NCBI GenBank assembly: GCA_032718475.1
Contig: JAUCBJ010008729.1
Location: 1 to 64,000 of the forward strand
Direction of reading: 5' to 3'
Source: Nemertoderma westbladi
Lineage: Eukaryota > Animalia > Xenacoelomorpha
DNA length: 64,000 nucleotides
Positions 11,273 to 64,000 of the stretch are shown one piece after another (positions within the stretch are counted from its first letter, which is position 1; the number at the start of each line of letters is the position of its first letter). The notes beneath the pieces were generated by a model. That model worked only from the letters and a program-made list of their open reading frames with translations, was not told the DNA's origin and searched no databases. Both the position numbers and the translations under genes were made by a program.

Positions 11273-11280
11273 CCGCTCCC
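11273..11280 (-). promoter_or_regulatory. Polypurine-tract-like plus-strand primer site of outer element (GGGAGCGG)
   Basis: ccgctccc abuts the LTR end; GGAGCGG is also next to the inner element's 3' LTR (28655-28661). Confidence 0.75.
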
Positions 11281-24210: not shown

Positions 24211-26160
24211 GTTTGATTGTACAGTTGAATGCCTACTACTATAATGACAGTTAAAGCAAGTCTAGTAAATCAGTATCAACTGTTAGCCTAGTAATTAATT
24301 ACCGATATCGTTACTCAATGTAACGCGATATATATATAATATATTAGAATACCGGTATACACTTATAGTATATATATAAGTATTATTACAGACTAGGGTT
24401 TGTCACAGAATACCGGTATATAATTTCAGCATAAATATATAGAAATATATATAATAAGCCTACCGTGAATACCGGTATACAGCATACACTTATAGTATAT
24501 ATAAGTATGATTATAGAATAGAATTAATTACAGAATACCGGTATATAATTTCAGCTTAAATTTATAGAAATAAATATAATAAGCCTATCGTAAATACCGG
24601 TAATGTCAATTATTTTACGATGCCTAAATTTTTGAATTTTAGGGTTACTTTCCTTTACTTTATTACTGTTATTAAGCAGTAGTCCAACTGATGTTAAGAC
24701 CTAATTGATGTATAACAGGCCTACTATTTTATAAATTGGTTTGAGTTGATTTATAATATATATATAACCGTATAATGGGTTTTTGACAATATTTGAAATA
24801 AATATTATTATTTCTGGTAAGGAGTCACTACACAGAAGCTGAACGCTCTCAGTGGAGTGCTACTTGTTGGACACTAAAACAAATAATTATACTTGACTAA
24901 GTTACTTATTACTACAAATTACATACAATTACTGGGCGAGATTTCAATCTCTAATAAACACAAAAATTACACGTACAAATTTTAGGGTAATTTTACAGGA
25001 AATCTAGAAACCAGCCTAACAAGGGGTTAGAATTTCTGGTTATTACAACGGACAGGATACTACGGTATTTGAAAATAATTAAGCAGTAGTAAATAAATTG
25101 CGTTGTCCAGATAAGAAAATACCACCATCTGACGACTTATAGTCTTTAGCTGTACAGCTCTATAAGTACTACGTTATGTACCCGGAGTGTTCTTACCTAG
25201 AAGTTAATTACCGCAGCCAACCAGAGCTAACGTGCCTATTAACCACTTTACAACACAAATATACTGCCTACACACTAATTACCTTCGGAAAGTACTGTAC
25301 ACTAAACCCTAAAGTAGGTACAAGTACTTATACAACAAATAACCAGCAGTTAAAAATACTTGTACAGCTAAAAGAACCACGGTATCTGCTGGAGTGACTA
25401 GAGCATAAAATCACCAGTCTTTACCTACGCCAAGCAGCCCTGATGTAGTACCGGGGTTAATTTAACTATAACGGTATATATAACAAGCACAATTACTGTA
25501 GGAATAAACTTGGGGAGTTATGTATGTTGCGAATACTCGTATATACTCTGAATAATAAATATTACGCTATCCGTGCAGACTACACAAACAAAATACAAAC
25601 TAAACGCTGGCAGACTACTATCAAGCCTAAATAAACTACAGTATATGCAGACTCCGGAATGGTTAGTTAGTATGCGTTCTAACCGAGTAGTACGACTTAT
25701 TCTTTCGGGGGGGATTTACCTTACAGCACTGGATGCCCCCACCTTCCTAACTAGTACTTTATTGGACATACACTCTACACACACTGCAATCTCTTCAGAC
25801 TCAACAACAGTCAGACAACAATCCAGCCTACAAATTATTTGTACAATTTGAGCGGGCTTACACGCCTTCTGCTCAATATTACACTTACAAATAAATAAAA
25901 CTGACAGAAATAAATAAGCTCTAAAAGAAACAAGGGGTGTACAGTCCCTAATCTCTTAAACAGCCTACCAATATACAATATCACAATCGAAATAATACTG
26001 GTACCGGTAAGTACCGGTTCGGGTGGCTAGGTAGTTAGGCCTACAGGTTACCATCCGACCGGTACAGTCGAATTTATTGCCTACGTGCAATCAAAACAAA
26101 AAATCTATTATTGTTCTTACCAGAACAATAGACAACTATATTTTTGTTTCTAAAATTTGA

Positions 26161-26171
26161 AAATCTATTAT
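26161..26171 (-). promoter_or_regulatory. Non-tRNA-like PBS-position sequence of outer element (ATAATAGATTT)
   Basis: Abuts the 5' LTR; no TGG; complementary to LTR-internal AAATCTATTAT (10899-10909, 46276-46286). Confidence 0.6.
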
Positions 26172-26457
26172 TGTTCGCGCTTTCAGACCTTTAGCAGTTT
26201 AACCTGCCAATTTTAGGTGTCCTCTTGTTTATAAATCGACTTTAGCCTATAACAACTATTTAATGCACATGAAGTAACATTAGCCGAAGCCAGTCTATGC
26301 GCGATCATTCACCCACAGTTAAGGGAGACTGGATTCGGATGCTTTGAAAGGATTGCGGTGCAGACCTACGGTATTATTCGATTGATAGTTACTATATAAT
26401 CTCTGACAATGTTATTCACTTTCGGGGAAATATTAACAGTTCCTTTAGGACGTGGCG
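26172..26457 (-). repeat. U5-side part of outer 5' LTR (interrupted by inner element)
   Basis: Near-identical to 10132-10417. Confidence 0.95.
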
Positions 26458-28654
26458 TGATAAACAACCGCGACCTCTATACTAACAGCAGAACCGTTGA
26501 ACAGACAAATACCCGTATACCTCTCTGCCAACCTAATGACTGTAATGAGCTCTCGCCTAACCAATAACAGAATAAGACACAAAGACTGCACTACTGTTAA
26601 GTAAAGGGGATCAGGAGCGTGATATTACTAAATTGTAAGGGTTGCTAAATACAAAACCGCTACTTATCGTTAGATGGCGCTAATCTGCCGTACGCTAATA
26701 TATTTACTAAATTTACACAACTCCTGCAAAATCGCTTGTTCCTTTCTCTACCGATCGCTCGATAGAGAGCTAACTGTTCGAATCTATGAGCCACGCGGGA
26801 ATAACCAAAACAATAAACCCGAGTCGGCTCCCTAAGCTTACTTAAGACGAGTGCGAGAGGCCTTGCACTCAGAGTATTCTTACGCCTAATTTTATCACTA
26901 TTAAAGCACGCTATTACCTACGTCTTTCTAATCGCGAATACTGGAGGTTCCCTAACGTAATGTGTGAATGCGAGAATATTTAAATATCAAAACGGTACAG
27001 TATCTGTTCCTACGTAAATAACATCACTCCGGGTCTAAAATCGCCTGCAGCTGGCTTTAGACCAGCAAATTACTAGCGTATCGTGCGTACCGAATAGTAC
27101 AATCTAGCTGATTGCCCGCTAATGCAAATAACCGCTCAGCGTGAATAGTTTACAGTACTCTAATTATTACTTTAGCTACTCTCCGCTATGCTGCGTACTA
27201 ATTCTTAATTTTTACTAATTAATTACAGTCACAAATATTTAACAGCGTACTAATTACTAAGAGTTCCAGAATACGTAATTCTAATTTATTACGCAACAAG
27301 TTTCGCTAGTAATAGCCTAAATTTGCCGTATTACTTTGACCTAATCAGTAACCAATTATTGTAACTAAGAAATAGAAATCAATCAAAGAAAAGGGGGGCG
27401 CCTACCTAAACATTCATAATCATAGGCACACTTCAATAACACACCAATCAGCGTTCACAGTTCGCAATTATGCAGTTAACTACTGTATAGTCCACAATTA
27501 TGCGACTCACTATTCGTACTCTACATTTAACGTTATACGCTCTAATACGCTGTAACACGTGCAGGCCTCTCCCGGGTACATATGGGACTCCTAACTAACC
27601 TGATTCCTGCCCCCTAATACTAAATAGAGACGAAACCTGGATCATCAGCCCCCTAATTACTGTACCGGCGATAGGTCTGCCCGTTGCACGCAAGTTGCCC
27701 GACCCCCGCCAGCGTTGCCTGCCTTTGAATCCTCTGCTCTCCCTTAGTCGCTCAACCCCCCGATGTGCCCACCGCCCACTGGCGCCTTAGCCCTCCATTA
27801 TGCTAATAGCTACCGTAGCGGCGCATGCAAATCACAAAGTCTGACAGTCTCAGGAATCCCTTAGGATTATTGCGCAGAAAAGAATCACATAGAACCATTA
27901 ATCAAAAGGTAGAAATCATAGTTCAGTTGTAATTAGCAGTAATCGACAGGAATTAATTGAGAAACACAAGCAAGAGTAATCGCACTAGCAAATCATTCCA
28001 AGAAATTAATCAAATTAGCAAATTGCAGAAAAATACAAGTATCAAGAAAAACAGTAAGACAGGTGCTAGGGCTAGGTGTCATGTGATGATAGGCTCTACC
28101 GGCACACCGCCAATTTATAGGTGATCCAGATGGGGTGATGCAATAGGGTGACTCAATCGCTTTCTTATTGGCTCTCCAGTCCGTGCTAGCACTAGACCAA
28201 CCTGGAAGCAGCTAGTCCAATAAGGAGGCCGGATTGTAGCCCTATTTGCTCCCCTTCCTCGAATTATTACCATATATGGTAATGGTTCACGTCTCTGGCT
28301 GCTGAATGGCCAGGACAGCGTCCCTATATGCTAGCCCTACTAAAGCTAATATCAGCAAGCACGGAATCCAGGGTCCGAATAAACTTACCCTGGAACTATC
28401 TACATATAACCTAATACAAAATTACGTAGGTAGGGCTACATACTATACAAAATGGATGGATTCAAATATATGGGTGTTTCGATTTCCCTATCTAAATACC
28501 ACTGCGTTATTATGCCTTATCTAAAATATCATGCTGCACAACGGACTAATATTACATACAGTATAACGGACTAATATTGCATACTGCATAACGGACTAAT
28601 ATTGCATACTGCATGATGACTAATATTATGGATACAGCGCCATATACCGTAACA
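26458..28654 (-). repeat. 3' LTR of inner element (2197 bp)
   Basis: Near-identical to 43574-45789; about 3 substitutions and 3 small indels by eye. Confidence 0.96.
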
Positions 28655-29530
28655 CCGCTCCAAGGGAAATCATACAATGTTTCCCTCCAATTGTAGAAGA
28701 GTATAAGGTGATGTATACAAAACAAAATAAATTTCTTCCAACCAATCTAAATAACATAATAATTCTACTATTTACAAATATTGCCATAGATATTGCATAA
28801 TGAATTTACATACAAATTAAAATTACAAAATATTGTTTCTCGTTCGTTCTACATAATGATTACTACATACAAAATTAAATTACAAAATATTACTTCCTTT
28901 ATTTACTTACAAATTGACGATCTACATATTGAAATGAAACATGGCTAGGACAATGTCCCCCATTTCCCATCTCAAATTAACAAGCAATATTAACAAGATA
29001 AACTAAATATAAACGTATTTGAGGCTAAATTTTTAACTAAATTGCATTAAAGGCCGATAATCAAATTAAATATAAAATACGTAATAATTTCTTTCATTTT
29101 CGGACTTTACTTAATTTCTTATAAAAAACGCAAATCATCTTGGTTTGATGATTGCTAGGACAAGTGAAAGGAGTAAGCCAAACCCGCAGGTTTGTCTCCC
29201 CAATCACTTCCTTCGCCTCTCTCATAATATAAATTCAAATAATTATGCAACTAGTGTATATGAGTCTAGTCGGATATTTCTAAAATGCTACAATATACAT
29301 CAGAGCGACGATCATGTATATATCTAGAGTCTGTCGCCCTGTGATACGATGCATTAACAACCCGCTCCTGGGTTCTTCGGGCTCGCTCCTCTCTTTCGCC
29401 CTCTGCCCAGATACACCAGTCGTCCTCTAGTCGACTCTGTTGACGGCGTCCGTGAGGCGTCACTCCCCGGAACCGGCGACGACGTTCCCTGAGCCCCGAC
29501 AGACTCCCGGCTCGCACTTCTCCCTCGGCC

Positions 29531-32500
29531 TCATCCCAATTGTCGCGCTCCCGTGGTCGCTTCCGCCAACTCTTCCTTCTGCAGTTGCACACGCGCTTTC
29601 TCAGACGCCCCCTGCGCCTTGCGCTGCAACCGCTGCGCTTCTATAATCGAATGGTAGTGGTCGTCCTTGACTTGACGCTTGTCTTGGACCTCTCCTCCTG
29701 GTTCTTTCCGCGAGCCTCGCGCTCCAGCGGTCGTCGCTGTGGTCGCTGCGATCCTTTGCTCTCGTATCCTCTCAGCGGTCAATGAACCCACTGGCACATG
29801 AGTCAACAAGAATTCGTTGCGGTACTGTATAGCCGCCATCCTCCAATCTCCTCGCGCGCGTACCACCTTTCTAGTCTCCGTAAATACACCCTTCGTAATG
29901 CGATCGCAAATGGCAACGAAGTTCCATGTGTACTTATTGTCCATGTTCAATTGTCTGAAGTACTCTCGAACTACGATAACTCCAGTGTTCTGTGGAAGGT
30001 CTTGAGCAGTTAGGATGAGCTCCTGATATTGTGGTAGCGATTGTAAATATGGCTCGTACGCAACATGCGATGGGTCTACCGCCCAAAACCCATATCCCGC
30101 TTTAAATGGTAACCAACGCATCTGCGCTTGGATATGGTAATCGGCCACACCCTCCCACTTATCTAACATCTCCCGAAGTAGGTTAGCGCTATGGTTTTGA
30201 AAGGAATCATCTCGTAGCTGACATCTTGCGCTACGATGTCCCTTTACCCCGCAATATTCGCATTGAGAAATGAAGACGGTGCACGTATGAAACGAATGGT
30301 CGGTCTCATTACACCAACGGCAGACCTTATGCGCCGCCTCTATTACCGCGTCGCACGACTTTAGATTGTGCCTTGTGCTGCCGCACAATTTGCACCTACG
30401 CGCTTGTGGAAACCAGGCCCTCTCGTATATGAGGTCTCCAATCGGTTTCGCACTTCCTTCTTTCCCAATGTCTAATACGATGTCGTCCTCTCCAGTCAAC
30501 GGTTGTCGATCCGGAACAAAGTAAACATCCTCGCCCTTATCCTCTATCTCCAATATTTCCTCCCGCGTTCGTTTCGGATATGTCTTCTCCACCGGGAGAT
30601 CTACTCCGAACACCTCTACTAAAGTCTCCGGCCAGCCCTCCTTAACAGGTTTATCAGCCTCCGAGTGGAAGGGAGTACCAAACCCGCGGGTTTGATTCCC
30701 GAACCACTTCTCCAAAGCTTCTGGCGTCGGATATTCCATCGACGGTCGGTCTCCCAAATCTCCGATATTCTGTCGATATATTCCTTCGAATATCGCTAAT
30801 CCTCTCCTCACCATCGACGTATTCTCTAACGATTGGTTGAAGAACGGGGTTAAGAAACGCTTCATCACGTCGGATTGGATTCCCCCTTTCGAGCGAACGT
30901 ATTGATCTCCTCCGAATACCAATGGATGACGCTTCAAAACTCGCGCAACGATATCCGCTAATAAACAAGTCACCGTGTTCGACTCAAGCACCAAATAATA
31001 TTGTAGCGACGCACGGGGTGGCGCGCAAATGTTCCAATACACTAACGCTTGCCGCTTGAAGTGGGATTTGAACTCCGCTCCCGGTGGCGTGTTGTATTCG
31101 CCGTACGCCTCCTCGTACTTCTTTTGCGTCTTTAACTTAAAGTCCCAATTATACAACAAGTGTGCTATAAAGCCCATACCAGTCTTGGCAGAGTTGGGAT
31201 ACTCCCTATAAATTCCAATATCCTGTGCCCATAGCAACAATAGCTTGGTGTCGACAAACGGTCTAGGCAATCTATCTTCCAGATCAGTCATGGCGTTGAA
31301 GTCGCTCTCCAAATCGCTCTGGACTCCCGATCCCACCTTGACGTAATCTTGGTTGAGAATAGCCTCTCTAACTTTCTTGGGTAACATCCTGGCGTCGATA
31401 CGCTCCGCTCCGTGCATACCTCCTCGCCTGCATACCTCCAAAATCTGTTCCCTAGGATCCTTTCCCTTCCGATATTGTGTCGTTATGATGGGCTCCGGTC
31501 TCTCTCGATCCGCCCTCACACGCATAAACACATGAGTCACACCATCGGCCGCACGAATCTGAATACACTTGCTGGTCAAGCATTCTTGATGGGACCCTCC
31601 TTCATTGTCGTAGAACATCACCCTCCAATCTTGCAGTGATTCCTCCGTTTTCCTCCACTGACGCTGAATCTCATCTGATGGGGTCCACATGCGCTCGATC
31701 GCCTTGTGGTCATCATATCGGGTATAAGAACCCTTCCTCCTCAGCCACGTCTGGTCTACCTCCTCGTCGTCTGGGAATGTAGCCACCGCGACCCATACCT
31801 TGATGTACTTATCCAACCATCCGAATAACTTACTCTCCTTCCCCGGAGCTCCAATCTTATCCAACGTGTCGTAATCTGTGATCTGCATTGGGACATCACG
31901 CAAGAACTTCGCGCATAAAACTTCCCGTAAACAGTCAACGTTCCAATGGTCCGCCATTCTTACCATCGGCAAGAATCGTATCGCTTCTCGCGACTCCGGA
32001 TGATCTACTAATATCGCAGGTTCGGTGCCGTCGGAATAATACACCGGTCCGGGTTGAGATACGACCTGTGGAACAAATCCGGTCACTCTCCTCGTCTCCT
32101 CTTGATGTCTATCCGCGGTCTTATTATACTCCGCTATCCTGTTCTCAAATAACTCCTTCGCCTTCGCCGCTCGCTCCTCCTGCCGCAACGCGTCTATGTC
32201 GTCCTGATGCTCAGGCGTGAGGCTTCTCACTCGGTGAGGTGAAGTAAACGTAGTCCAGGGACTCGAGAGCTCCAAACCCGCGGGTTTGGTACCCGAGTCC
32301 CGCGCCGCTTCGCGCCGCGCCTCTAGATCCTTGTAGGCTCGGTATAGCGAAATGGCCGCTGCCGTCTCTATCAAACTGGGTGTCGAACAGGGTTTAATCT
32401 CCGTATACGGATCTAATGTCGTAACGGTCGGCGTAATGGGTCTCGGAGGTCGCTTTCCGCTGAAGTCGATACTGATCATCGGGTTGCTCATCGGGTAACC

Positions 32501-33061
32501 TCCCTCGTTATATCTAAGGAATTGGTGAGCTGGACATCGCGTTAATATCGGTTCCGGATGTTGCTCGTCTAATCGGTCGGGAATCGCCACGTCCTGTTTA
32601 TTCATGCATTCACCACACTTGTAGAAGAGCTTGTATACGCTGAAGACTTTCGGCGTCTCCTGATCCTCGCCTCGAGTCCTCCGATACAGATGCATTCCGT
32701 CGAACTGGTCTCGGACTGCAGGTAGAGGCTCCTCATGTCGTAAATACATATTCATATGGTATAGTCGTGCGATTTCCTCGTCCGGATCTGCGCTAATGTC
32801 GCACACGTCCAAAGCAAAGTCGTAGGGATACCGCGTGCGATACTCTTTCCGCAAGACTTCCATCCGGTCCCCCAATGCTCTCATTCTTTCTCTCCGTAAT
32901 TCTTTATCATAACTTGGTTTATACTTCCCGTTCAGCTCCATCACGGACCGCCCATGGTAGTAAACGTTAGAGTCTTTACATCCCGGTCGCGCGAATGGTA
33001 GCTCCGCCTTTTCTCTGGCAGTAAATCCTCTGCGCGGTTGCGCTCTAATATCCCTCTCCAT
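29531..33061 (-). CDS. Accessory protein of inner element, 1176 aa: DEDDy-like (WRN-exo/RNase D/Mut-7 type) 3'-5' exonuclease plus three CCHC zinc knuckles
   Basis: ExoI VMFYDNEG (DNE at 31601-31609); CIQIRAADG..HVF; LPKKVREAILNQDYVKVGSGVQSD (ExoII); FVDT; ExoIII-like LQYYLVLES; knuckles CKLCGSTRHNLKSC, CRWCNETDHSFHTC, CEYCGVKGHRSARC (30221-30394). Confidence 0.8.
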   Translation of the reverse strand: MERDIRAQPRRGFTAREKAELPFARPGCKDSNVYYHGRSVMELNGKYKPSYDKELRRERMRALGDRMEVLRKEYRTRYPYDFALDVCDISADPDEEIARLYHMNMYLRHEEPLPAVRDQFDGMHLYRRTRGEDQETPKVFSVYKLFYKCGECMNKQDVAIPDRLDEQHPEPILTRCPAHQFLRYNEGGYPMSNPMISIDFSGKRPPRPITPTVTTLDPYTEIKPCSTPSLIETAAAISLYRAYKDLEARREAARDSGTKPAGLELSSPWTTFTSPHRVRSLTPEHQDDIDALRQEERAAKAKELFENRIAEYNKTADRHQEETRRVTGFVPQVVSQPGPVYYSDGTEPAILVDHPESREAIRFLPMVRMADHWNVDCLREVLCAKFLRDVPMQITDYDTLDKIGAPGKESKLFGWLDKYIKVWVAVATFPDDEEVDQTWLRRKGSYTRYDDHKAIERMWTPSDEIQRQWRKTEESLQDWRVMFYDNEGGSHQECLTSKCIQIRAADGVTHVFMRVRADRERPEPIITTQYRKGKDPREQILEVCRRGGMHGAERIDARMLPKKVREAILNQDYVKVGSGVQSDLESDFNAMTDLEDRLPRPFVDTKLLLLWAQDIGIYREYPNSAKTGMGFIAHLLYNWDFKLKTQKKYEEAYGEYNTPPGAEFKSHFKRQALVYWNICAPPRASLQYYLVLESNTVTCLLADIVARVLKRHPLVFGGDQYVRSKGGIQSDVMKRFLTPFFNQSLENTSMVRRGLAIFEGIYRQNIGDLGDRPSMEYPTPEALEKWFGNQTRGFGTPFHSEADKPVKEGWPETLVEVFGVDLPVEKTYPKRTREEILEIEDKGEDVYFVPDRQPLTGEDDIVLDIGKEGSAKPIGDLIYERAWFPQARRCKLCGSTRHNLKSCDAVIEAAHKVCRWCNETDHSFHTCTVFISQCEYCGVKGHRSARCQLRDDSFQNHSANLLREMLDKWEGVADYHIQAQMRWLPFKAGYGFWAVDPSHVAYEPYLQSLPQYQELILTAQDLPQNTGVIVVREYFRQLNMDNKYTWNFVAICDRITKGVFTETRKVVRARGDWRMAAIQYRNEFLLTHVPVGSLTAERIREQRIAATTATTAGARGSRKEPGGEVQDKRQVKDDHYHSIIEAQRLQRKAQGASEKARVQLQKEELAEATTGARQLG

Positions 33062-33841
33062 TATATTACGCGTATATACATATATATATATCCCAATAAG
33101 TGCCGTTACGTAACCAACTACACTGTGGGTAAATCAGTTAGATGTCGCCGAAGGACAGACCTCCCGAACCCCCCCCGCCTTCCAGCAGTTCAGGTTCGAC
33201 TCTCTAGATCCCGTCTCTTCCTAACTAACTATCCTCTAACCTATTCCCATGCATAGCGCAAAAACTTTGGAGATAAACTGGCCGTGACCAACTCACTTTT
33301 TGATGCCCAAACTACTCCCATTACTCCTACTAAACTACAGTAGTTAGAAAGGACCATAGTCACAATACTCGACTATACCAAACCCACAGGTTTGATAATC
33401 GAACATCACACATCCTGCAAACTACTGAGTGGGGTCCATGTACGCCTCTGGTGCTACTAACCTTTAGCACCTTAGTTGCACTGTTGGCACCAATCTGTGG
33501 AAGTTGCTAAACTCAATTTACACTCCTACGTAATATAGCCATCACCATGGTTTCTAAATGCTATTTTCCAGGCTTCACGACTTTTACTTTTCAAATTACT
33601 GTTTTCTATAGACGAATTTTTCTATAGACGGAAACTAAAACGCGTCTATACACAGCGTCTGGAATTGTCTTGGGTTCACTTCTAATTTTTAAAATTTTCT
33701 AATTTTCCAAAAATTTTGAAAATAAAATTTTGTTTTGATACCCACTAGACAAAACTCAACGCAAATCACCACAACCCCGCTCCTATGCATTTCCTTGTAT
33801 TTGCATACGAGGAATGCATACGAAGTGAGTTGCGTCCAACA

Positions 33842-36800
33842 CTAACTCTGTTTTGAGGCAGGAGACAAATTATAATCTCCTGTCTTGATACGTGTCTCCT
33901 CTAATAACACAATATCTTGGACCGGTCGGTCCAAGGTGTGTAAACCATTAGTTTTACACTTTTTTGGGTGCGGACACTTGCACCTAATTTTCACAGTGAC
34001 TGTGCGCACTATGTTATGCACGTCTGGGTGTGTGTGCAAGATCACTCCAGTCTCCCAATACTTTCTCTTGACAATGGGTTCGGTTATCAGTACGTAATCT
34101 CCCCTTTGGAGGCTCCGAACCGTTTTGTACCACTTTGTTCTGGTGGATATGGTGGGAAGATAGTATTCCCGCCAATATTCCCAGAATGTGTACGCTACTA
34201 ATTGAGTCACTTTCCAGCTCTTACGACTATATAGGTCGGCACTAATGGGTTCTGATGCCGGCACAAGAAATGCTGGACTCTGCATTAGCAAATGATTCGG
34301 CGTTAATGCAACACCGTCTGGTAACATAGCTATCGGCCTCGAGTTTAGGGTATGCTCGATTTCAATGAAAGCTGTGACCAGTTCGTCGTCGGTAAGTTGT
34401 TTGTTCACAGGCAATGTTTTAGCAATGGCCTGCTTTACAGAGCGAACTAAACGCTCCCAACTTCCTCCTCTCCAAGGACTTTCTGGAGTATTGAATCTCC
34501 ATTCTACTCGTTGCGGCAAAAGTGCTGCAGAAATTTCCTTATTCTGTGCTGCTTTATGAGCCGCGTTCAACTCGCTATTCCCTCCGACAAAGTTTGTACC
34601 CTTATCGGAGTAGAACGCCTTTACTAGTCCTCTCCTGGCCATAAATCTCTTTAAGGCCAGGAGCAGAGATTTGGTCGACATGTCTGCCACACGCTCAATG
34701 TGTATGGCTCTACTCGCCATACATGTCAGTAGCAGACCCCATCGTTTGTGGGTCAGCCGTCCACTCTTTGCTTCAATCGGACCAAAACAATCCACCCCTG
34801 TGTTCGTAAAGGGTGGGTCATATGCATGCACTCTCGCTTCCGGGAGTTCAGCCATCTCCTGTTCCAATACTCTGGCGTTCACTCTCTTGCAAACCAGACA
34901 GGCGTCGTACATGGTGCCTACTGCCCTGCTTGGCTGCAATAGAATGAATCGCTGTCTCGCTGCCGACAAACAGTGTAACTTTCCCGCGTGATGCAACCTC
35001 TTGTGTATATCCCATAGAATCGCTCTTTGCAATTCTGTTGGGTGACTAGGGATTATCACTGGGAACCGAAACTGTGAGTTTATGTCGACAGTCTGGATTC
35101 TCGATCTATGACAAATCAAACCCTTATGGATTAATGGACTCCATTTTCTAAGGGGTTTATAGAGAACTGGTCGTTGAGCCGATAATAGATGGAATTCTTT
35201 GGGGAAGGCACACATTTGATAATGTTTCAAATGCTTTAATTCCGCTTGATCAATCTCATCCTCTGTCAGAGGTTGTTTCAATTTCCGAATTCGCTCACTA
35301 TTGGTGCTCAATGGTTCTCTCAAATGTTTCGAATGTTTTAAACAAAGGTACGAAATGTATCGGCTTAACCACGCAGTTCTTTTACAAATTGTCAGCCAAG
35401 AGGCAGACGAATTTAGTAATTTGTCATAAATACTGCATGACTCTAATGCCAGCGACGGTTGTCCGCTAACCAATGGAAGTTTCGAATCCAAACCCGCAGG
35501 TTTGGAAACCAAAGGCTCCATTGTGTCGGTCATTTTCTGTCCGTCACTTACCAACTGTGACTCCGGTTTAGTCTGTAAGGGTGGTTTTATGTCGTAACTT
35601 ACCCTTCCTGACCTAGTAGTCACGTAAGTCTGTTGGTCTGACAGGTCTCCGGGCCGCTCCAATGACTCTTCAGGCCGCTCCAATGACTCTTCAGGCCGCT
35701 CCAATGACTTAAGTTTGGCTTTAGACTTCGACTTAGAGACTTTCTCCACTTTGACTTCTGCATCTTCAGGCATCGGATTGGTCACTATCTTTAGTCGCTC
35801 TGGCCAATGTTCCTGTGTCCTTGTTAGAAAATCAGGTCCATGCAACCAAAACTCCTGCGACTCTTCCTGACAAAATTCCGCCGGCATTGCACCTCTCGAA
35901 GTTATGTCGGCCGGGTTCAACACTCCCGGACAATGTCTCCATTGTTCCTTCGTCGAAAAGTCAACGATCTGAGCGCGTCTGTTGGCCACAAATGTCTTTA
36001 GTGCAATATTGTCGGCCGCAATGTATACTAACACTAAGGATGCGTCCGTCCAATAGAATAAGGTCAATGTCGTGTCTAATTCCTCTGTTATTTGCTTACT
36101 TACCTCGACTGAAACTACAGCCGCCTGTAACTCTGCACGAGGGACAGTCATGTATTTGACCGGCATTGTCTTTGATCTAGAAGTCACAAAGGCCGTCTCA
36201 AACTTGTCCTGACTTACCTCTCGGCGAAGGTAGGCTACCATACCAAAGCCGGTGTCACTTGCGTCACTAAACATATGCAGTTCGAGATCAGCTGGAAATA
36301 CCAGCTGATTCGGAAAGTAGGAACGGGGTACGTCTATGTTTTTCAATAGATGTAACTCGGCTTCCCACTCTCTCCACTGCTTTGCATGTATAGGAGATAT
36401 TGGTTCGTCCCACTCTACGTCGGACAACCAAATTTTCCTCATGCACGCTCGTGCCTGTAATATAACCGGACTGATAAAGTTCATCGGGTCAAATAGTCTA
36501 CTCAATGTCGATAAGCAAATCCTCTTAGTCAAAACTTTGTCTGGGCTACTGGGCTCAAATCTAACTCTTACCTGGAACTTATCTGAGTTCGGGTTCCAAG
36601 CGAGTCCCAGTACTCGCGCCATGGGGATTGGTTCTACCCCCAATTCTATGTCTCCGCTCCCGCGATCTTTTACCGGGAACGACTCTAATAGGGCCTCCGA
36701 ATTCGTAGTGAACTTGGTCAGAGGAAATCCCCCTGTAGCCAAGCACTCTTGCAGGCCGTGAGCCACTTCTATGGCTTGTTCCGCCGTGTCCTTGGACACC

Positions 36801-38815
36801 AATCCGTCGTCCATGTAGAAGTTTCTCAAGATGGACTCGATAACCTCTACTGGGTACTTACCAATCTGGGCTGTTGCCGTTTTCTTTAGAACAAACAGCG
36901 TGCCATTCGGACTATCGCGGGCGCCAAATATCCTAACGTACATTTGGTATGTAACCACTGGGCCGGATAAGTCTTCATTCTCGTACCAGAGAAAGCGAAG
37001 GCTATCCTGGTCTGCCTTACAGGCTCTTACCTGGTGGAACATCGCCTCGATGTCACAAGTAAATGCGAATCGTCGCTGTCTAAAACGCAACAGTATTCCT
37101 ATCAAATAGTTATTCAGGTTGGGACCATCCATCAACTCTGAATTCAGGGACATACCTCTATAGACTGCTGCGCAGTCGTTGACTACTCGGACTTTGTCTG
37201 GCTTGTCAGGGTGAGTCACATAGTGGTGTGGAAGGTAATAAGTCTGGTCTGTCACTAAGTCAGGGTCCTCTACCTTCCCAGCAAATCCCTTGGCGAAATA
37301 GTTGTTGATCTGGGCGCAATACTTCTCCCTAATGTCCGGATTCCTTAACAACCGAGCCCTTACTCCGTTCAATCTTTTCAAGGCTAAGTTGTAGTTGTTC
37401 TCCAACTTAGGTGGTTGTCGACGCCACAACATTCCAACTTCAAAATGTCCAGTCGGTAGCAGACGTATGGTGTCTTCCATCATCTCCAGCGACCGTTTTT
37501 CATCAGTAGACATGGCTAGGTCATATCCACCGGGTTCCATTGCGTCCCTATCCAGCCATTCGACGGTTCTGGCTCCTGTCTCGAGGTCCTGGCGTATCAA
37601 TTCCTTCTGTAATTCCTCCTCACTGTATTGGAAAATGTCGAGGTCTCGATATTTAGCCACTTGACCCTCCACTATGTCTGTATAAGTCAAAACGTTAGTC
37701 AAATAGGTAGCGTGGGCCGCTGAACCAGACCCACGGGTCTGATAACAGTAGTCCTCGGGTTCACTATCTGTCCGGTCGTTATGAAGTGGTTCCGACAACC
37801 TAACATTATCGGGAATCAACTCCTCGTCCGACTCGCTAAAGTCACTATAGTGGTCAATACAGGTTCTCCTAAACTCGTCTATGTCTGGTGGTTCTACTAA
37901 CGGTGGTTGAGTTATAGGCTGTAATTCGTCGTATCTATTCATTGGCTTGTCGCCACCTGTAAACTCATAAGACATGGGTACTCGTGTATACCAACCTAAT
38001 ATAGTCCTATGGGCATGTGGTCCATTGACATGCGGCTCAGCTGGTCTCGTTTCCCATATCTGGTGTGCGATCAGCTGTTCTGCACCAATCAACATAGAAA
38101 CATTCCTATAACCTACCTGGTGTCTGGGTATCCTGAGCTTGTCAAAATACTCCTGTGCTATGGGACTCATCGGCGGCACCTTACCTAACTGCCTGCCGAA
38201 TCCCTTCATAGCTAGACACTTAAATCCGTCCAATGGCAAAGCTTTCCGTTCTTGTCGAGTGTGTTGGTCTCTCGGTAGTAGGGAATCTAGTTCTACCGAA
38301 ATTCTGTGTCCCTTGAGGTCTCCTACCCCATGCATAGACTTCAACTCTATTTGGATCTCCTCGGCGTCCTGGAAGCTAGAAACAGCTCTCGCCACTTCCT
38401 CGTCGATATAAGATAATGTGGACGCAGTGTCCAACATCACATATATTCGCTTCGATCCCTTATCGCCAGTGAGTTTCACCGGAATCACGCTAAATATTTC
38501 CGACGTGGCCGATGATAAATACGTCCGCGCGCTGGTCGATGAACTATCCGCGGTGAAACCTTGGCAGGTCACTTCTCTCGCGCTCGACTCGCCATCCTCG
38601 TCCGACGAACCTGGTTGGTAACCATCGTCCTGGATGCCGGTGTACGTATTTCTCCTTATCGATACGGGTTCTTTGCTCCCCTTCCTGTGAGGATTTCGCT
38701 GTAAGTAACGGTCCGTCGGGGTGTGGAAATCCGCATGTAGCAACTTGTAGTCTGCCGCATTCCATGCATCCGTCCTTGCTGTTCGGGCACTGCCGCCGTA
38801 CATGACCTGGCGCAA
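33842..38815 (-). CDS. Inner element pol region (PR-RT-RNase H-integrase), BEL/Pao
   Basis: VMLDTAS; YYLPHH, CDIEAMF, FYMDD; FSDAS, PRAEL, WTDA, NPAD; HAGK..CLVC, GVDCFGP, SDKGTNF, WERL; open for 1657 codons. Confidence 0.93.
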   Translation of the reverse strand: MRQVMYGGSARTARTDAWNAADYKLLHADFHTPTDRYLQRNPHRKGSKEPVSIRRNTYTGIQDDGYQPGSSDEDGESSAREVTCQGFTADSSSTSARTYLSSATSEIFSVIPVKLTGDKGSKRIYVMLDTASTLSYIDEEVARAVSSFQDAEEIQIELKSMHGVGDLKGHRISVELDSLLPRDQHTRQERKALPLDGFKCLAMKGFGRQLGKVPPMSPIAQEYFDKLRIPRHQVGYRNVSMLIGAEQLIAHQIWETRPAEPHVNGPHAHRTILGWYTRVPMSYEFTGGDKPMNRYDELQPITQPPLVEPPDIDEFRRTCIDHYSDFSESDEELIPDNVRLSEPLHNDRTDSEPEDYCYQTRGSGSAAHATYLTNVLTYTDIVEGQVAKYRDLDIFQYSEEELQKELIRQDLETGARTVEWLDRDAMEPGGYDLAMSTDEKRSLEMMEDTIRLLPTGHFEVGMLWRRQPPKLENNYNLALKRLNGVRARLLRNPDIREKYCAQINNYFAKGFAGKVEDPDLVTDQTYYLPHHYVTHPDKPDKVRVVNDCAAVYRGMSLNSELMDGPNLNNYLIGILLRFRQRRFAFTCDIEAMFHQVRACKADQDSLRFLWYENEDLSGPVVTYQMYVRIFGARDSPNGTLFVLKKTATAQIGKYPVEVIESILRNFYMDDGLVSKDTAEQAIEVAHGLQECLATGGFPLTKFTTNSEALLESFPVKDRGSGDIELGVEPIPMARVLGLAWNPNSDKFQVRVRFEPSSPDKVLTKRICLSTLSRLFDPMNFISPVILQARACMRKIWLSDVEWDEPISPIHAKQWREWEAELHLLKNIDVPRSYFPNQLVFPADLELHMFSDASDTGFGMVAYLRREVSQDKFETAFVTSRSKTMPVKYMTVPRAELQAAVVSVEVSKQITEELDTTLTLFYWTDASLVLVYIAADNIALKTFVANRRAQIVDFSTKEQWRHCPGVLNPADITSRGAMPAEFCQEESQEFWLHGPDFLTRTQEHWPERLKIVTNPMPEDAEVKVEKVSKSKSKAKLKSLERPEESLERPEESLERPGDLSDQQTYVTTRSGRVSYDIKPPLQTKPESQLVSDGQKMTDTMEPLVSKPAGLDSKLPLVSGQPSLALESCSIYDKLLNSSASWLTICKRTAWLSRYISYLCLKHSKHLREPLSTNSERIRKLKQPLTEDEIDQAELKHLKHYQMCAFPKEFHLLSAQRPVLYKPLRKWSPLIHKGLICHRSRIQTVDINSQFRFPVIIPSHPTELQRAILWDIHKRLHHAGKLHCLSAARQRFILLQPSRAVGTMYDACLVCKRVNARVLEQEMAELPEARVHAYDPPFTNTGVDCFGPIEAKSGRLTHKRWGLLLTCMASRAIHIERVADMSTKSLLLALKRFMARRGLVKAFYSDKGTNFVGGNSELNAAHKAAQNKEISAALLPQRVEWRFNTPESPWRGGSWERLVRSVKQAIAKTLPVNKQLTDDELVTAFIEIEHTLNSRPIAMLPDGVALTPNHLLMQSPAFLVPASEPISADLYSRKSWKVTQLVAYTFWEYWREYYLPTISTRTKWYKTVRSLQRGDYVLITEPIVKRKYWETGVILHTHPDVHNIVRTVTVKIRCKCPHPKKCKTNGLHTLDRPVQDIVLLEETRIKTGDYNLSPASKQS

Positions 38816-41800
38816 GACATGCCCAACAGGTGTCCAACGTCCGCACTTGAACTCTTCTCTGTTCCGAATTTAATTCTTTGAACCGTCTGCAACTATCTAA
38901 CTTATGGTCGTCAGATCTTACCTCCTTTAGTAAACAGTATTGGCAACCTACAAATCCATCCGGCAACTCCTGTTGCTTTAACCTAGGTCTATCTAACCGC
39001 TCACCTGACCATACTCGCGAGTCTGATCTAAAGGCTGGGGTATTCGAATTATATCTGTCTACTGAGTTAAATGTCACAGTGGTCCTGTCATCGTCAAAAC
39101 TTACCATAGACTTACCGGTAACAGGTTTAGACTCCCTCATATTCTCCTCTGAGAAGTTTGATTTCATCTCTGCTACTGCGTCTGTGGCTATCATGTCATG
39201 AATATGCTGAAGTGTCAATACTTTACCTTGGCCCTCCAACTTATTCTCTAATTTGCGCCATTTCTGTCGATAACGCATATTTAGACGTCTTATTACGCTT
39301 TTCAAAACTTCGGCGTGATCACCATGATGAGGTAGATTCACCGTCCTCAGGATGTCCAATGCGTTCGAAATAGCGTTCGCTAAGTTCAAAAGCTCTAACG
39401 GAGTTGTAATCCTTCCGCCCTTACCCAAGTCTTCTACTATCGACTGCGCCATCTTGGTTTTATTCCCGTAGATGTCGCTAAGCGTCTTCATCGCTAACTC
39501 AAATGCTCTCTCGTTGCCGACGAAGTTATCAGCAATGGCTCTAGGTTCTCGATGGAGCATCTGAAGCAAATAGTTGAACTTCTCGTTGGGAGTAAAGGTG
39601 CTGTTGGTTAGCTGCTCGTCGACATAGGTTTTAAAGGTCCTCCAGTGCTTATGGTTGCCCATAAACTTCTGGGGTTGTTGCGTCGGCAGTCCTTGCCTAG
39701 CAGCAAACTTACCTATGTCCCTAAGGGTTGCGTCGTTCCGGGTTAACAAATGGTTTAGTTCCGCAGGGTTGTTAAGTCTGGTCCTTTCCCGGTGGTTCCA
39801 ACTTACCTGCTCCGCGTCGGTCCTTCTTTCCTTATAGTTTCGGGACTTCTGACGTCTCATTTCTTCCTCTTCATCGCTCGACTCGGTGTCAGTCCTTAAC
39901 GCTCGCGATGGTTTGCGCGCCGAGGCCCTGATCCAAGCCTCCTCTATAAATTTCTCGGCTGAGTTTTCGAAGTTGGGATTAGAGATGTTCGGGACAGGCG
40001 TCCTTACCTGAGGTCTATGTGGTATAGTTTCCTCCGATATGCGTACTCGTTGACTAGGCTGGACTTTGTCTAACTCAGGTCTGCTAGGATTAGAATTACT
40101 TCTTACCTGGGCTGCTTCCTTTAACCGTAGGTTGCTAAGCATGTCCGTTATAGGTTGGATGTGTGGCGATATAGCTTGCGCTAAACTAGCACTCAACTCA
40201 TCCCTCGTAATAAATTCCTGGCTAGGGTTCTGTTGTATAGTCGGCTCTATCTGAGTAATCCGCTGTCTCTCATATGATCCCTCTTCCGGTTTAACCCGGA
40301 AGTTCTCCGTCGAACTGGGTCGGCGCTCCGTCCGCGTATTCCAAACCCGCGGGTTCGGTTCGCCCAATACTCGGCCCGTCGGAGTTTCTTCTCTAAATTC
40401 TTCGTTGTCGCGTTCGGTGTATAGTGGTGCGGCGTTCCGATGACGTAGATCCTGCGCGATAGGTGAAGCACTAATACCAACTGGCGTGCGATATGTAGAG
40501 AATGGTTTAACGATCCGTGTACTCGTAATAGCTGGACCGGGTATAGGAATTTTGGTCGTCGTCGACTCGCGTATGGTCGGAGTTCTCGCTTCCTGTTCGG
40601 CCTTCTGCAGTGCGAACAGTTCTCGCAACTCGGTCCCTACACTCGCCCCACATTCTTCGATCATTCGCATCCCCTTCTCGGCGATTTCGTTCGCCTTCCT
40701 AGTCCGTTCTTCGCTCTCTAAACTTAATCTCGCACTTTCCAACTGCGCCAGTTTACGTTCTTCTTCTTCCCTCGCTCGTCTCGCTGCGCCCTCTTCTTCC
40801 ACTCGCGCCTTTTCTTCATACAATGCGCGTCTTCTTTTCTCGATCTCGAGTTCGCGTTCCTTGCGTCCGCGTTCGAGTTGAAGCTCGCGCTCCTTCTGTT
40901 CACGATCGAGTTTCTTGCGCTCGCGTTCGGCTTGGAGTTCGCGTTTCTTCGCTTCCTGTTCGCGTTCGAGTTGGAGTTCGCGTTTCTTCGCTTCCCGTTC
41001 GCATTCAAGTTGGAGTTCGCGTTTCTTCGCTTCCCGTTCGCATTCGAGTTGGAGTTCGCGTTCTCTCTGTTCGCATTCGAGTTCCTCGCGTTCGCGCTCG
41101 GCTTGGAGTTCACGTTCCCTTTGCTCGCGTTCCGCTCGCTCGCGCTTACTTATCTCTTCCAACTCTCGTAACTCTGCGTCCAACTTACGTGTGCGCTTCC
41201 GTTCCCTTTCGGCTTCCTTCCGTGCTTCCTGTGCACGCAAAACTTCCGCCTGCTGTTCGTCTAGTCGGCGTCTTCTCTCCTCCGCCGAGTTGTGAGAAAC
41301 AAGGGATCTAGCACATATTACCTTACCTCGCGCGTGACTAACCTGGGAATCGCCGCTGTCTCTAGATGCGTCGTCGGGTGGAGTCAACGTCCTCTGTTGA
41401 ATGTTCTCCGTCGTCGGTAGCACCTGACCCGGTACCACCACTCCATTCTGCATCAGCCAGCTAGTAACTTCCCTCTGATAACGGCGCTCCTCTTTATCCT
41501 GCGTCTCTTCTCGCTCCACTAAGTCTCTTAACTCTGCGTCACTCACCTGAGTCGCCTGCGCTTGTGATGCCCATAGCAGCCAGTTCTCTGTCCTAACTCG
41601 TCGGAATCGCTCCGATAACTCGCGGTGCTCTAACAAGGCTGCTAAAACCCTGTCGTAAATCCTCGTCGCCACGTCGCTCGACTGAGACTCCACTGCCTTC
41701 TTCGCTAGGACTGCAAGCTCCTCCGTCTGCTTGAATAACGCTGAGTTATTCCTCTTCTAATCTCTGCTAACTCTACCCTCCCGATGTTCGCTGAGTCGGC

Positions 41801-42292
41801 TAACATTTTCCTTACCTTGTCCGCCGTCCGGGTTATATGTCCGGCATGCGCGCGAAGTTTCTTCTTCATCGCAGTGTCGAACTCTCTATCACTTACCTGA
41901 CTTACGCTCGGTGGACTTGAAGGATTATTTCGGGAACTACGGGTACTCCTTACAGCCGCTGGGACCACGGCACTTACCATACCCACAGGTCTGGAAACCG
42001 GGCTCCGGGCTCTCGCTTCTGCTACACTACCCTCCTTATCACTCACCTCTGGTCGGGTTGCTGTACAATCCTTCCTTACAGTAGCGGTAGGGGATCCTAA
42101 TACTATTACTTGAGGTTGTTGTTCTTCCTCACTAGTCACTGTCTCGTCCTCCTGTTCACTTACGTCAGCGTCGCTCGCTGCGTCGTCATAGTCGGCATTG
42201 TCGTCAACAGTAATATTGACGCTATCGTCAGTCGGCGGTCCAGCCGCCGTCTCGTAGCTGTCCTCTAGTGCCTCTTTGTCTGAGACACTCAT
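38544..42292 (-). pseudogene. Inner element gag, with frameshifts near 41760 and near 38760
   Basis: ORFs 41705-42292 and 38544-41693; FMGNHKHWRTF..EKFNYLLQML capsid-like block; knuckles CQYC..H..C, CWAC..H..C; the third knuckle CMECG continues as KLLH in the pol frame. Confidence 0.85.
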
Positions 42293-43563
42293 AGTCTAAA
42301 TAATGTTTGCCTTCCGGCAAAATTATCTCGCAAAAGTTCGAGATATTATTATAATTTAACCGAAATACGGTCAAATTAATTGTCAAATAATCAGTTGGTC
42401 CAAAATGTCAAATAAATTCGCAATGCAATATTGTGAATTTAATGGGGTATATAGTTATAGCAAATACTAGCACAATATTTAAACAAAAATATTATTATAT
42501 AGCTACTATATAGCATTAAATACTGGTATAGCACAAAATAACTCTGAATCTAATACAAAATATTCAAAATATACTTGCCACCCGAATATTTCTAATTTTA
42601 TATATATAGCTCTAATCAACGTAATTTTAATTTCAAATATTATATGTATCCACTAGCGCGTGGCTACATCTTCGGGTTGCGACTCTCTCTAACTCTCTCT
42701 CTAACTTGAGCGATTCAAAAAACCATGGCCGGCTAAACCTAAATATCCTAACTAATAAATTGAGTTCAGCTTCGCAGTTAAACAACCGATAATTTTTTAC
42801 TGCTTCCACAAACACACTGGTGCCAACAGAACAACCAACCTTGTTTGCTGTGAGATTCCACGTCCGCGTCCAAAGATTCAGGCTCTCCGCTGATTGCAAA
42901 CCGAACCCGCAGACCCACACGAACCCCAAACTCAGAAGTTCCGTCTTGCCATGTATCTCCAGATGGTATAAAATAACTAAGCGGTTACCTAACATACCGG
43001 TACAAAACTCTAGAATTTTACAAAATAATTTTGACCGAAACTGAATTCTCGCAAACCTAGCTAATAATTTTCAAAAACTTACTAATTACAATTTGCCCTA
43101 AGGCCTAAGGAACTGTATTCGCAATTAGTAAAAACGCACTACCGTACATCCACTGTATGCAGTACAGTAAGTAAAACAGTACACCAACCTAACAGCCTAA
43201 TGATACTGTATATGTGGTACGGCAAAACAAATGTCCCTTCTACCGTACGCAGTAACAGCAATCAGCCTAATGTACTACTGTACTATTGTACGCAGCCAGT
43301 GAATACAGTAATCTAAACTAACAACCTAAAGGAATATGCTCAATGTCTTACCGTACGCTAGCCTATAGCCTACAGCAGACGATCACGTGCTCTAATTTAT
43401 TGCCTAATACTATGATACTACTAATCAGCCTAAGAATACACTATCGACTGCTGCAAGCAACAGCCAATAAATGCACGTGTTACTGATACGAAGTATCAGT
43501 AATCTAAACTAACAGCCTAAGAATACTCTATTTACTGTACGCTACAGCCTACAGCAAACAGTC

Positions 43564-43573
43564 CACGTGTTAC
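43564..43573 (-). promoter_or_regulatory. Non-tRNA-like PBS-position sequence of inner element (GTAACACGTG)
   Basis: Abuts the 5' LTR; does not start TGG; complementary to LTR-internal CACGTGTTAC (27552-27561, 44674-44683). Confidence 0.6.
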
Positions 43574-45789
43574 TGATAAACAACCGCGACCTCTATACTA
43601 ACAGCAGAACCGTTGAACAGACAAATACCCGTATACCTCTCTGCCAACCTAATGACTGTAATGAGCTCTCGCCTAACCAATAACAGAATAAGACACAAAG
43701 ACTGCTCTACTGTTAAGTAAAGGGGATCAGGAGCGTGATATTACTAAATTGTAAGGGTTGCTAAATACAAAACCGCTACTTATCGTTAGATGGCGCTAAT
43801 CTGCCGTACGCTAATATATTTACTAAATTTACACAACTCCTGCAAAATCGCTTGTTCCTTTCTCTACCGATCGCTCGATAGAGAGCTAACTGTTCGAATC
43901 TATGAGCCACGCGGGAATAACCAAAACAATAAACCCGAGTCGGCTCCCTAAGCTTACTTAAGACGAGTGCGAGAGGCCTTGCACTCAGAGTATTCTTACG
44001 CCTAATTTTATCACTATTAAAGCACGCTATTACCTACGTCTTTCTAATCGCGAATACTGGAGGTTCCCTAACGTAATGTGTGAATGCGAGAATATTTAAA
44101 TATCAAAACGGTACAGTATCTGTTCCTACGTAAATAACATCACTCCGGGTCTAAAATCGCCTGCAGCTGGCTTTAGACCAGCAAATTACTAGCGTATCGT
44201 GCGTACCGAATAGTACAATCTAGCTGATTGCCCGCTAATGCAAATAACCGCTCAGCGTGAATAGTTTACAGTACTCTAATTATTACTTTAGCTACTCTCC
44301 GCTATGCTGCGTACTAATTCTTAATTTTTACTAATTAATTACAGTCACAAATATTTAACAGCGTACTAATTACTAAGAGTTCCAGAATACGTAATTCTAA
44401 TTTATTACGCAACAAGTTTCGCTAGTAATAGCCTAAATTTGCCGTATTACTTTGACCTAATCAGTAACCAATTATTGTAACTAAGAAATAGAAATCAATC
44501 AAAGAAAAGGGGGGCGCCTACCTAAACATTCATAATCATAGGCACACTTCAATAACACACCAATCAGCGTCAGAAATTACAGTTCGCAATTATGCAGTTA
44601 ACTACTGTATAGTCCACAATTATGCGACTCACTATTCGTACTCTACATTTAACGTTGTACGCTCTAATACGCTGTAACACGTGCAGGCCTCTCCCGGGTA
44701 CATATGGGACTCCTAACTAACCTGATTCCTGCCCCCTAATACTAAATAGAGACGAAACCTGGATCATCAGCCCCCTAATTACTGTACCGGCGATAGGTCT
44801 GCCCGTTGCACGCAAGTTGCCCGACCGCAACGTTGACCCCCGCCAGCGTTGCCTGCCTTTGAATCCTCTGCTCTCCCTTAGTCGCTCAACCCCCCGATGT
44901 GCCCACCGCCCACTGGCGCCTTAGCCCTCCATTATGCTAATAGCTACCGTAGCGGCGCATGCAAATCACAAAGTCTGACAGTCTCAGGAATCCCTTAGGA
45001 TTATTGCGCAGAAAAGAATCACATAGAACCATTAATCAAAAGGTAGAAATCATAGTTCAGTTGTAATTAGCAGTAATCGACAGGAATTAATTGAGAAACA
45101 CAAGCAAGAGTAATCGCACTAGCAAATCATTCCAAGAAATTAATCAAATTAGCAAATTGCAGAAAAATACAAGTATCAAGAAAAACAGTAAGACAGGTGC
45201 TAGGGCTAGGTGTCATGTGATGATGAGGCTCTACCGGCACACCGCCAATTTATAGGTGATCCGGATGGGGTGATGCAATAGGGTGACTCAATCGCTTTCT
45301 TATTGGCTCTCCAGTCCGTGCTAGCACTAGACCAACCTGGAAGCAGCTAGTCCAATAAGGAGGCCGGATTGTAGCCCTATTTGCTCCCCTTCCTCGAATT
45401 ATTACCATATATGGTAATGGTTCACGTCTCTGGCTGCTGAATGGCCAGGACAGCGTCCCTATATGCTAGCCCTACTAAAGCTAATATCAGCAAGCACGGA
45501 ATCCAGGGTCCGAATAAACTTACCCTGGAACTATCTACATATAACCTAATACAAAATTACGTAGGTAGGGCTACATACTATACAAAATGGATGGATTCAA
45601 ATATATGGGTGTTTCGATTTCCCTATCTAAATACCACTGCGTTATTATGCCTTATCTAAAATATCATGCTGCACAACGGACTAATATTACATACAGTATA
45701 ACGGACTAATATTGCATACTGCATAACGGACTAATATTGCATACTGCATGATGACTAATATTATGGATACAGCGCCATATACCGTAACA
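43574..45789 (-). repeat. 5' LTR of inner element (2216 bp)
   Basis: Direct repeat of 26458-28654. Confidence 0.96.
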
Positions 45790-46649
45790 TGGCGCTTTAA
45801 GTATAAAACAGAGTTATGACTTATACTAAACACAACGAGATGGCTATTGATTTTCGTAAATGGCGCATTCTTTAGGAGATGCTTTATTATCTGTCACACT
45901 GCTGCATACGACTTCACACTGCTGCACACTGATCTGCCGACCGTCACTGAATTTGATCATATATAAGGAGGATAGCAACTGACACATGTAGGGATTATGA
46001 AATAGCATTTAATGCACACTAAAACCACTGTAATGTAAGTCGCAATTGCTACCGGTAACCGGTCTCTCTAACCTTTGGTAATCAAGAAGATTGGGGTTTT
46101 ATGATTATTTATCGATATTCTCCAAATATAACAACATATCCATCAACATGTAACAATTAATAACCGACAGTAAATAGCAGTAAAATAATGCGGTGAATAG
46201 GATTGAGTGAGTGCAGTTTCATCAGTCAGGCCCAGTCATAATGCATTGAGTCAGTACCGCAGTTGGTAGGTGCAGATAATAGATTTACGTTTTTATAATC
46301 AAAGCCGTCTAATGTTGGCCAAAGTCTGAAACTTCTAACACAGAAGCACAGAATAATTTCCAAGCAGTTGTTCTCGCTCAGAAAGTAAAACAAAGACCGT
46401 AATGCATTGCGCGATTTCCCGTAGGCTTCTGTGTAAGATAAAATGAAAATCGCTCTGATTGGTCGAGCGAGCCGAACAAAGAAAGTTCCACATCGACAGC
46501 AAATCAGCTGACAGATTTCGTCATCTGAACTACACTCTATTTAGAGTATTTGGCGTATTGCGGCATAAAATGGCTTGTTATGTCCGCTAAAACACCTACA
46601 GGGTACATTGCGGAGAAAATGACTGGTTATATCCGCAAAAGCTTTTACA
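45790..46649 (-). repeat. U3-side part of outer 5' LTR
   Basis: Near-identical to 10413-11272; followed by TSD GCCAT. Confidence 0.95.
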
Positions 46650-46721
46650 GCCATTGTTTAGATATATATATCCTGAAAGTGAAAATAAGGCTTTATTAGC
46701 TTTATCACACAGCAGCTTGTG

Positions 46722-54118: not shown

Positions 54119-54194
54119 CTATGAAACCCAAAGTTTAATTAGTATCTCGATATTATTAAATTAGTTGCTTATTCTTTCTTTATTGCCTCTCTAG

Positions 54195-63932: not shown

Positions 63933-64000
63933 TGTCGGTAACTGATCCTCCCATTGTCTCCATTGTATTGCTATCTCTTCTGATATGGGTTCATCCCAAT

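Follow-up and report, generated by a model that had tools for sequence, protein, structure and literature searches.

Nested BEL/Pao retrotransposons of Nemertoderma westbladi with primer-binding sites complementary to their own long terminal repeats: candidate self-priming

BEL/Pao retrotransposons are described as primed by transfer RNA (tRNA). The International Committee on Taxonomy of Viruses (ICTV) gives the family Belpaoviridae tRNA priming with an 18-nt tRNA site, long terminal repeats (LTRs) of 0.2-1.2 kb and genomes of 4.2-10 kb (PMC8742986), and one BEL/Pao element has a tRNA-Tyr site (PMC4580426, in part). Self-priming, in which the primer is the RNA of the element itself, is described for Ty3/gypsy elements, namely Tf1/Tf2 of Schizosaccharomyces pombe, Tj1 of S. 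japonicus and the Tf1/sushi and Tcn1 groups (PMC7175516 and PMC4600332, in part), and is predicted for one lineage of copia. Here we describe two nested BEL/Pao elements, outer and inner, on the minus strand of a 64-kb window (the whole stretch of DNA analysed) from Nemertoderma westbladi (Xenacoelomorpha; assembly GCA_032718475.1, contig JAUCBJ010008729.1, positions 1-64,000, forward strand). Self-priming in some form is very probable for this pair, and minus-strand DNA is probably primed by an internal 10-11 nt of the element's own 5' LTR RNA, cut by ribonuclease H (RNase H), rather than by a tRNA. No report of BEL/Pao self-priming was found in the available parts of the literature (PMC3601003 and PMC6934838 among them), subscription journals, supplements and Repbase entries lying mostly outside the search. 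The available parts of PMC3118150 do not mention primer, primer-binding site (PBS) or tRNA, those of PMC554778 do not mention a PBS, PBS words were not found in the accessible supplements of PMC13524379, and the parts of PMC8233318 and PMC8220671 consulted hold nothing relevant to the question.

Complementarity between PBS and LTR

A first-pass annotation of this DNA had reported six PBS and LTR motifs, all of which were found (Table 1), and in both elements the match begins at the LTR boundary as claimed, on the first base after the terminal CA. The 18-nt tRNA-complementary PBS of BEL/Pao elements is absent, as had also been noted, with no TGG within 5 nt of either LTR. No tRNA genes were found in the 64-kb window, and 42300-46700 gave no Rfam match, so no known ribozyme or tRNA-like primer lies there. 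Dinucleotide-shuffled LTRs equalled the match at offset 0 in 12 (outer) and 8 (inner) of 3000 shuffles, and in 22 and 23 of 3000 when offsets 0-5 were allowed. The earlier chance estimate of 0.002 per element was slightly low, the shuffles giving 0.003-0.008. The LTRs of the two elements are unrelated, as annotated (best blastn E 1.1).

Related families were collected by a metagenome scan of 21 of 64 parts, in which 539 relatives were found among 598 stretches; the best 80 were kept and formed 59 families. For 17 of these, comparison of two copies fixed the LTR end; the other 42 were left out. Four LTR ends were trimmed by eye, by 1 nt in L009/L010, L024 and L055 and by about 10 nt, after the fit had been seen, in L046. 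Both contiguous and spliced LTRs were compared with the PBS, the match being allowed to start 0-5 nt from the LTR end. A match of at least 10 nt to the own LTR was found in 16 of 19 families (the 17 relatives and the window pair), compared with 11 of 342 cross-pairs, six of these 11 being among three families with one shared primer. The complementarity is thus kept with different letters in sister families, as the check proposed in the annotation called for. The 16 comprise nine families that match across a strong GT-AG junction (11-15 nt), five contiguous relatives (10-12 nt) and the two window elements; a 14-nt match in L013/L075 requires a looser splice rule, for which no null was computed. 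Ten relatives thus need an LTR intron removed, five are contiguous like the window pair, and two keep TGG. These last, L049 and L059, match their own LTR over 4 nt; their TGG lies at offset 5 and 2, respectively, in sites that we take to be tRNA sites. The PBS match of every self-complementary family begins within 0-5 nt of the LTR end, which is also the position of the site in the TGG families.

A tree of reverse transcriptase (RT) with 36 rows placed all 17 self-complementary rows on one side of a branch (SH-aLRT 92, not starred), apart from the two TGG families. The window elements were sisters (98, long branches), and FastTree with 82 rows agreed. Contiguous forms were scattered among spliced forms, and family L042 has both an intron-bearing LTR (5' piece, 1-326, with the acceptor) and an intron-less one (3' LTR, 6694-7103); this suggests repeated intron loss. 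In most relatives the motif is put together by splicing across a junction in the LTR, so the window pair is likely an intron-less form of a splice-built primer system.

Some further observations concern these families. The two LTR copies of L042 are 88% identical and could come from a chimeric assembly. The splice-type site L013:56-70 starts with TGGT like a tRNA site, while most self-primers end in AC; as a speculation, it might be a relic of tRNA priming. In a blind search, six loci whose LTR end was not fixed reached 6-10 nt and 30 cross-pairs 7-10 nt; the search did not discriminate and was not counted, and neither were fits by eye in L038, L069 and L074. Viral contigs gave 92 pattern matches and no relatives.

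Copies of the inner family were read from contigs of sequencing runs X1-X5 aligned to the window, X1 and X2 being the same sample. On the LTR side (four runs on 42800-46800, 40 of 624 rows displayed), motif position 44678 has T in place of C at full depth in X1 (11 contigs) and X3 (6 contigs), X4 and X5 having no cover there. The partner change at PBS position 43569 was predicted in writing before four runs were aligned to 43430-43650. This position reads A for G in X1 (12078 of 12128; 26 contigs), X2 (12773 of 13070; 9 contigs) and X3 (12648 of 12648; 9 contigs), with no cover in X4, and it is one of only two near-fixed substitutions in 221 bp. The window copy has a G-C pair where most inner-family copies have A-U, a covariation expected if plus-strand synthesis recopies the PBS from the primer. 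This compensatory pair and the sister families support the self-priming proposed in the first-pass annotation; the notion of a self-priming lineage stands with the amendment that the trait extends beyond a single lineage and, in most relatives, requires a splice junction.

Source of the primer and rival readings

In the mechanism that we propose, transcription would start upstream of the motif, and the motif in the 5' LTR RNA would pair with the PBS, probably with the assistance of nucleocapsid. RNase H would cut at the 3' end of the motif, by analogy with Tf1 (PMC7175516, in part), RT would copy U5 and R back to the cut and then jump to the 3' R, and plus-strand synthesis would recopy the PBS from the primer. 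The inner TATA box lies 571 nt upstream of the motif, which would place the motif inside R, and a CCAAT box at nt 188 of the outer LTR allows a start earlier than the TATAAAA at -11. The TATA-like boxes (-11 outer, -571 inner) do not place the start at the motif, in agreement with the annotation. Of 16 LTRs, 14 have AATAAA or ATTAAA downstream of the motif and none has it upstream; in the window pair the first such hexamer follows after 263 and 268 nt. The motif is therefore unlikely to be a natural RNA 3' end, and a cut would be needed. Motifs end in AC (13 of 17), AT (3 of 17) or CT (1 of 17), the relatives not being independent, and an AC/AT end is a possible cut signature. We favour the 5' RNA copy over the 3' copy as the primer source because the intron can persist in the spliced relatives only if one copy escapes splicing, and splicing is expected at the short cap-proximal exon.

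The inner LTR also contains a strong splice donor (45518-45525) and an acceptor (44742-44757, 59 nt before the motif) that could bound a 781-nt intron, which would contain the TATA box. In neither window element did a spliced primer exceed the contiguous match in length.

Several results weigh against priming by the cut 5' copy. The splice rules and the four trimmed LTR ends were set after the sequences had been viewed. The predicted outer duplex is weak (-8.0 kcal/mol; inner, -13.5 kcal/mol), and the outer PBS also pairs, by chance, with an unrelated LTR, that of L039, over 11 nt. Because contigs were short, the compensatory pair is unphased; it represents a single event in two studies, and the 40 of 624 rows displayed held no covariation for the outer family. 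If the outer TATAAAA is a promoter, it leaves the 5' motif untranscribed, and it fits no Tf1-like start either. In equilibrium folds of 993- and 1301-nt models, where motif and PBS are 767 and 1100 nt apart, the helix between them had a pair probability of 0.000, so the duplex would need chaperoning or pairing in trans. No helix between the downstream flank of the primer and the LTR end (U5) rose above cross-pairs (-4.9 vs -5.1 kcal/mol).

Part of this evidence would suit self-priming by the 3' LTR copy, or by a second RNA in trans, with the 3' end trimmed to the duplex, possibly by the exonuclease-like third open reading frame (ORF3) of the elements. The outer TATAAAA would leave the motif only in the 3' copy, the cis helix is absent from the folding models, and ORF3 folds like Nibbler/RNase D with the ExoI D-x-E kept. 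However, in 15 self-complementary relatives RT-RH (RH, RNase H) and the LTR are separated by only 1.5-2.0 kb, too short for ORF3; trimming would destroy the 3' R of that RNA, whose first poly(A) hexamer lies beyond the motif; and a cap-proximal intron is, by general knowledge, the one expected to be spliced. We consider this route unlikely. A true and selected pairing might instead be a structural switch in packaging, dimerisation or translation, the primer being another molecule, for example a fragment of a tRNA. An antisense arm and a second junction copy, from which alternative hairpins could form, are present in both leaders, and half-tRNA priming exists in copia (PMC6317226, in part), but the match occupies the site position of the TGG families in every family, and PBS and LTR vary together from family to family, a pattern for which a host RNA would not account; such a switch seems to us quite improbable.

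That the complementarity arose by chance in two AT-rich or palindromic sites can hardly be credited: many elements pass through a genome scan at a chance of 0.003-0.008 each and one cross-pair match involves the outer PBS, but both elements show the match, the predicted compensatory change was found, and own matches far outnumber cross-pairs in proportion. Priming by the RNase H-cut 5' copy thus stays our preferred reading. A bolder scenario, in which a large clade of BEL/Pao elements of aquatic animals swapped tRNA for an internal self-primer that was at first built by host splicing, and the giant intron-less pair added a decoy-hairpin switch covering the primer site and a Nibbler-like exonuclease that makes the primer by trimming an RNA end as far as the duplex, is doubtful.

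Structure of the elements and other features of the window

The inner element is inserted in the 5' LTR of the outer one. The outer element (10132-46649; 17,181 bp; LTR 1141 bp) and the inner element (26458-45789; 19,332 bp; LTR 2216 bp) have their ends set by 5-bp target site duplications (TSDs), GCCAT (10127-10131/46650-46654) and TGGCG (26453-26457/45790-45794), respectively. The outer LTRs differ at 14 of 1141 positions and the inner ones by 4 mismatches and 3 gaps in 2216, the lower divergence of the inner pair fitting the nesting order. Both elements have TG...CA LTR ends, a short TSD and a polypurine tract (PPT), and both encode DUF1759, PF05380, Integrase_H2C2 (integrase zinc domain) and DUF5641, in the order protease-RT-RH-integrase (PR-RT-RH-IN) as in BEL/Pao. 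PF05380 was present in 105 of 108 protein homologues; the best homologues were BEL/Pao proteins (about 40% identity), the top named ones from echinoderms, a hemichordate and fish, and no chromodomain family was matched in a protein domain scan of the pair. Judged by its predicted proteins, the pair is of the BEL/Pao lineage, yet outside the ICTV description of the family.

Table 1. Coordinates of the features of the nested pair
Feature	Position	Strand	Remarks
Outer PBS position	26161..26171	-	11 nt adjoining LTR; complement of the element's LTR motif
Outer candidate primer motif, 3' LTR copy	10899..10909	-	LTR nt 364-374
Outer candidate primer motif, 5' LTR copy	46276-46286	-	
Inner PBS position	43564..43573	-	10 nt; complement of the element's LTR motif; positions 43569 and 44678 covary
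Inner candidate primer motif, 5' LTR copy	44674..44683	-	LTR nt 1107-1116
Inner candidate primer motif, 3' LTR copy	27552..27561	-	
Outer TATAAAA	10914..10920	-	11 nt before motif start; TATA-box role unproven
Outer leader hairpin	26100..26132	-	antisense arm 26123-26132; second LTR-end/PBS junction copy 26100-26116 (17 nt)
Inner leader hairpin	43474..43502	-	antisense arm 43493-43502; second junction copy 43474-43488 (15 nt)
Outer 3' LTR	10132..11272	-	1141 bp, TG...CA; TSD GCCAT
Outer polypurine tract	11273..11279	-	end GGAGCGG identical to that of inner
Outer ORF3 remnant	11680..13140	-	486 aa; rear of exonuclease-like domain and zinc knuckles
Outer gag-pol	16054..24069	-	six broken frames (DUF1759, PF05380, integrase zinc domain, DUF5641)
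Outer 5' LTR, U5-side piece	26172..26457	-	
Outer 5' LTR, U3-side piece	45795..46649	-	contains motif 46276-46286
Inner 3' LTR	26458..28654	-	2197 bp
Inner ORF3	29531..33133	-	1200 aa; predicted 3'-5' exonuclease fold of DEDDy type at about aa 500-720; three knuckles of CCHC type at about aa 914-975
Inner gag and pol	33842..42295	-	three frames (196, 1070, 1675 aa)
Inner 5' LTR	43574..45789	-	2216 bp; TATAAAT 45248-45254; sole AATAAA 44401-44406

The outer and inner ORF3 are 24% identical. Pfam gave only a weak knuckle match and word-index searches no match for ORF3; distant relatives numbered 10 among 1.84 billion representatives, none with a functional name. In a protein atlas search 24 of 30 matches carried PF01612 at 0.91, and an 11-row profile matched EXD2 (E 8.7e-7). 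The structural model, of low confidence (predicted local distance difference test, pLDDT, 46; single-sequence fold, 33 only), matched the EXO domain of Nibbler (Z 11.8, root-mean-square deviation 3.9, 193 aligned) and is Nibbler/RNase D-like; Foldseek ranked the same fold first, its best E of 0.002 not reaching 0.001. On these models ORF3 is predicted to have a DnaQ-like fold. By eye, in the 11-row alignment, the ExoI D-x-E, the ExoII D and the Tyr are present and the last D is E, so that ExoIII reads Y-x-x-x-E. An earlier reading of ORF3 as env was dropped after the exonuclease fold result. The 17 relatives without room for ORF3 indicate that it is not required for self-priming.

The leaders of both elements contain a feature that the first-pass annotation had missed: the LTR-end/PBS junction is repeated 56 or 86 nt on, and an adjacent antisense arm folds with the repeat. 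The direct repeat is 17 and 15 nt long in the pair, against at most 8 in 17 relatives, while the antisense arm alone (8, 9 nt) is equalled by L017 and L031. The arm could instead cover the true PBS site, acting as a switch. At 43479, the position of the inner second PBS copy that matches 43569, no change was listed; depth falls there, and the change is seen in one loose end. Just past the 3' end of the outer motif (46197-46275), contigs of related copies diverge for 48-77 nt, the motif side matching.

Elsewhere in the window lie a third BEL/Pao pol fragment (61200-63998; 49-55% identical to the inner Pol, its 5' end beyond the window), a remnant of the long interspersed nuclear element (LINE) type with endonuclease and RT in several frames (2619-8062), a separate RT fragment (55372-56538) and tandem repeat arrays at 8985-9775 (unit about 23 bp), 52345-52717, 53670-54119, 57139-57959 (about 44 bp) and 59157-59291 (about 35 bp).

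Comparison with known systems

If the proposed self-priming is true, it would have originated in a third superfamily, with an internal primer that is mostly assembled by splicing; reverse transcription would be tied to RNA processing, and a large clade of animal elements would be freed from tRNAs. The failure of PBS finders on such elements would then be explained as well, and a sequence rule to detect them would be at hand, the contiguous window pair being the simplest case for primer mapping.

The Juno and Vesta LTR elements of bdelloid rotifers resemble the pair in carrying an exonuclease-like third ORF after pol with an altered DEDD; they are other elements, with DEED where the pair has a Y-x-x-x-E ExoIII and three zinc knuckles, and the available parts of the source mention no link of that DEDDy ORF to priming (PMC5408684). 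The TAR lineage of Ty1/copia (Houba, Osr-1) is a second superfamily in which self-priming was predicted from sequence, as here, but its members are plant copia elements with another domain order (PMC6317226, in part). With the ICTV Belpaoviridae/Semotivirus the pair shares a DUF1759 Gag, the PR-RT-RH-IN order, LTRs and a PPT (PMC8742986); it differs in having no tRNA site, a 2.2-kb LTR and lengths of 17-19 kb.

As in Tf1-type elements, a PBS of about 11 nt is complementary to the own LTR RNA and no tRNA site is present, and the RNase H cut of those elements is what we propose for the pair by analogy (PMC7175516 and PMC4600332, in part). Unlike them, the pair has BEL/Pao proteins and not a Ty3/gypsy chromovirus Pol. 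The Tf1 primer is the first 11 nt of the RNA, whereas no start at the motif is indicated by the promoter motifs of the pair, and ten relatives have a motif that straddles a splice junction. Tf1 reportedly has a supporting RNA structure around its duplex; a Tf1-like flanking helix was not found in the pair, one helix having been tested. The pair probably works like Tf1, is not a member of Tf1/sushi, and falls outside what the ICTV describes for its own family.

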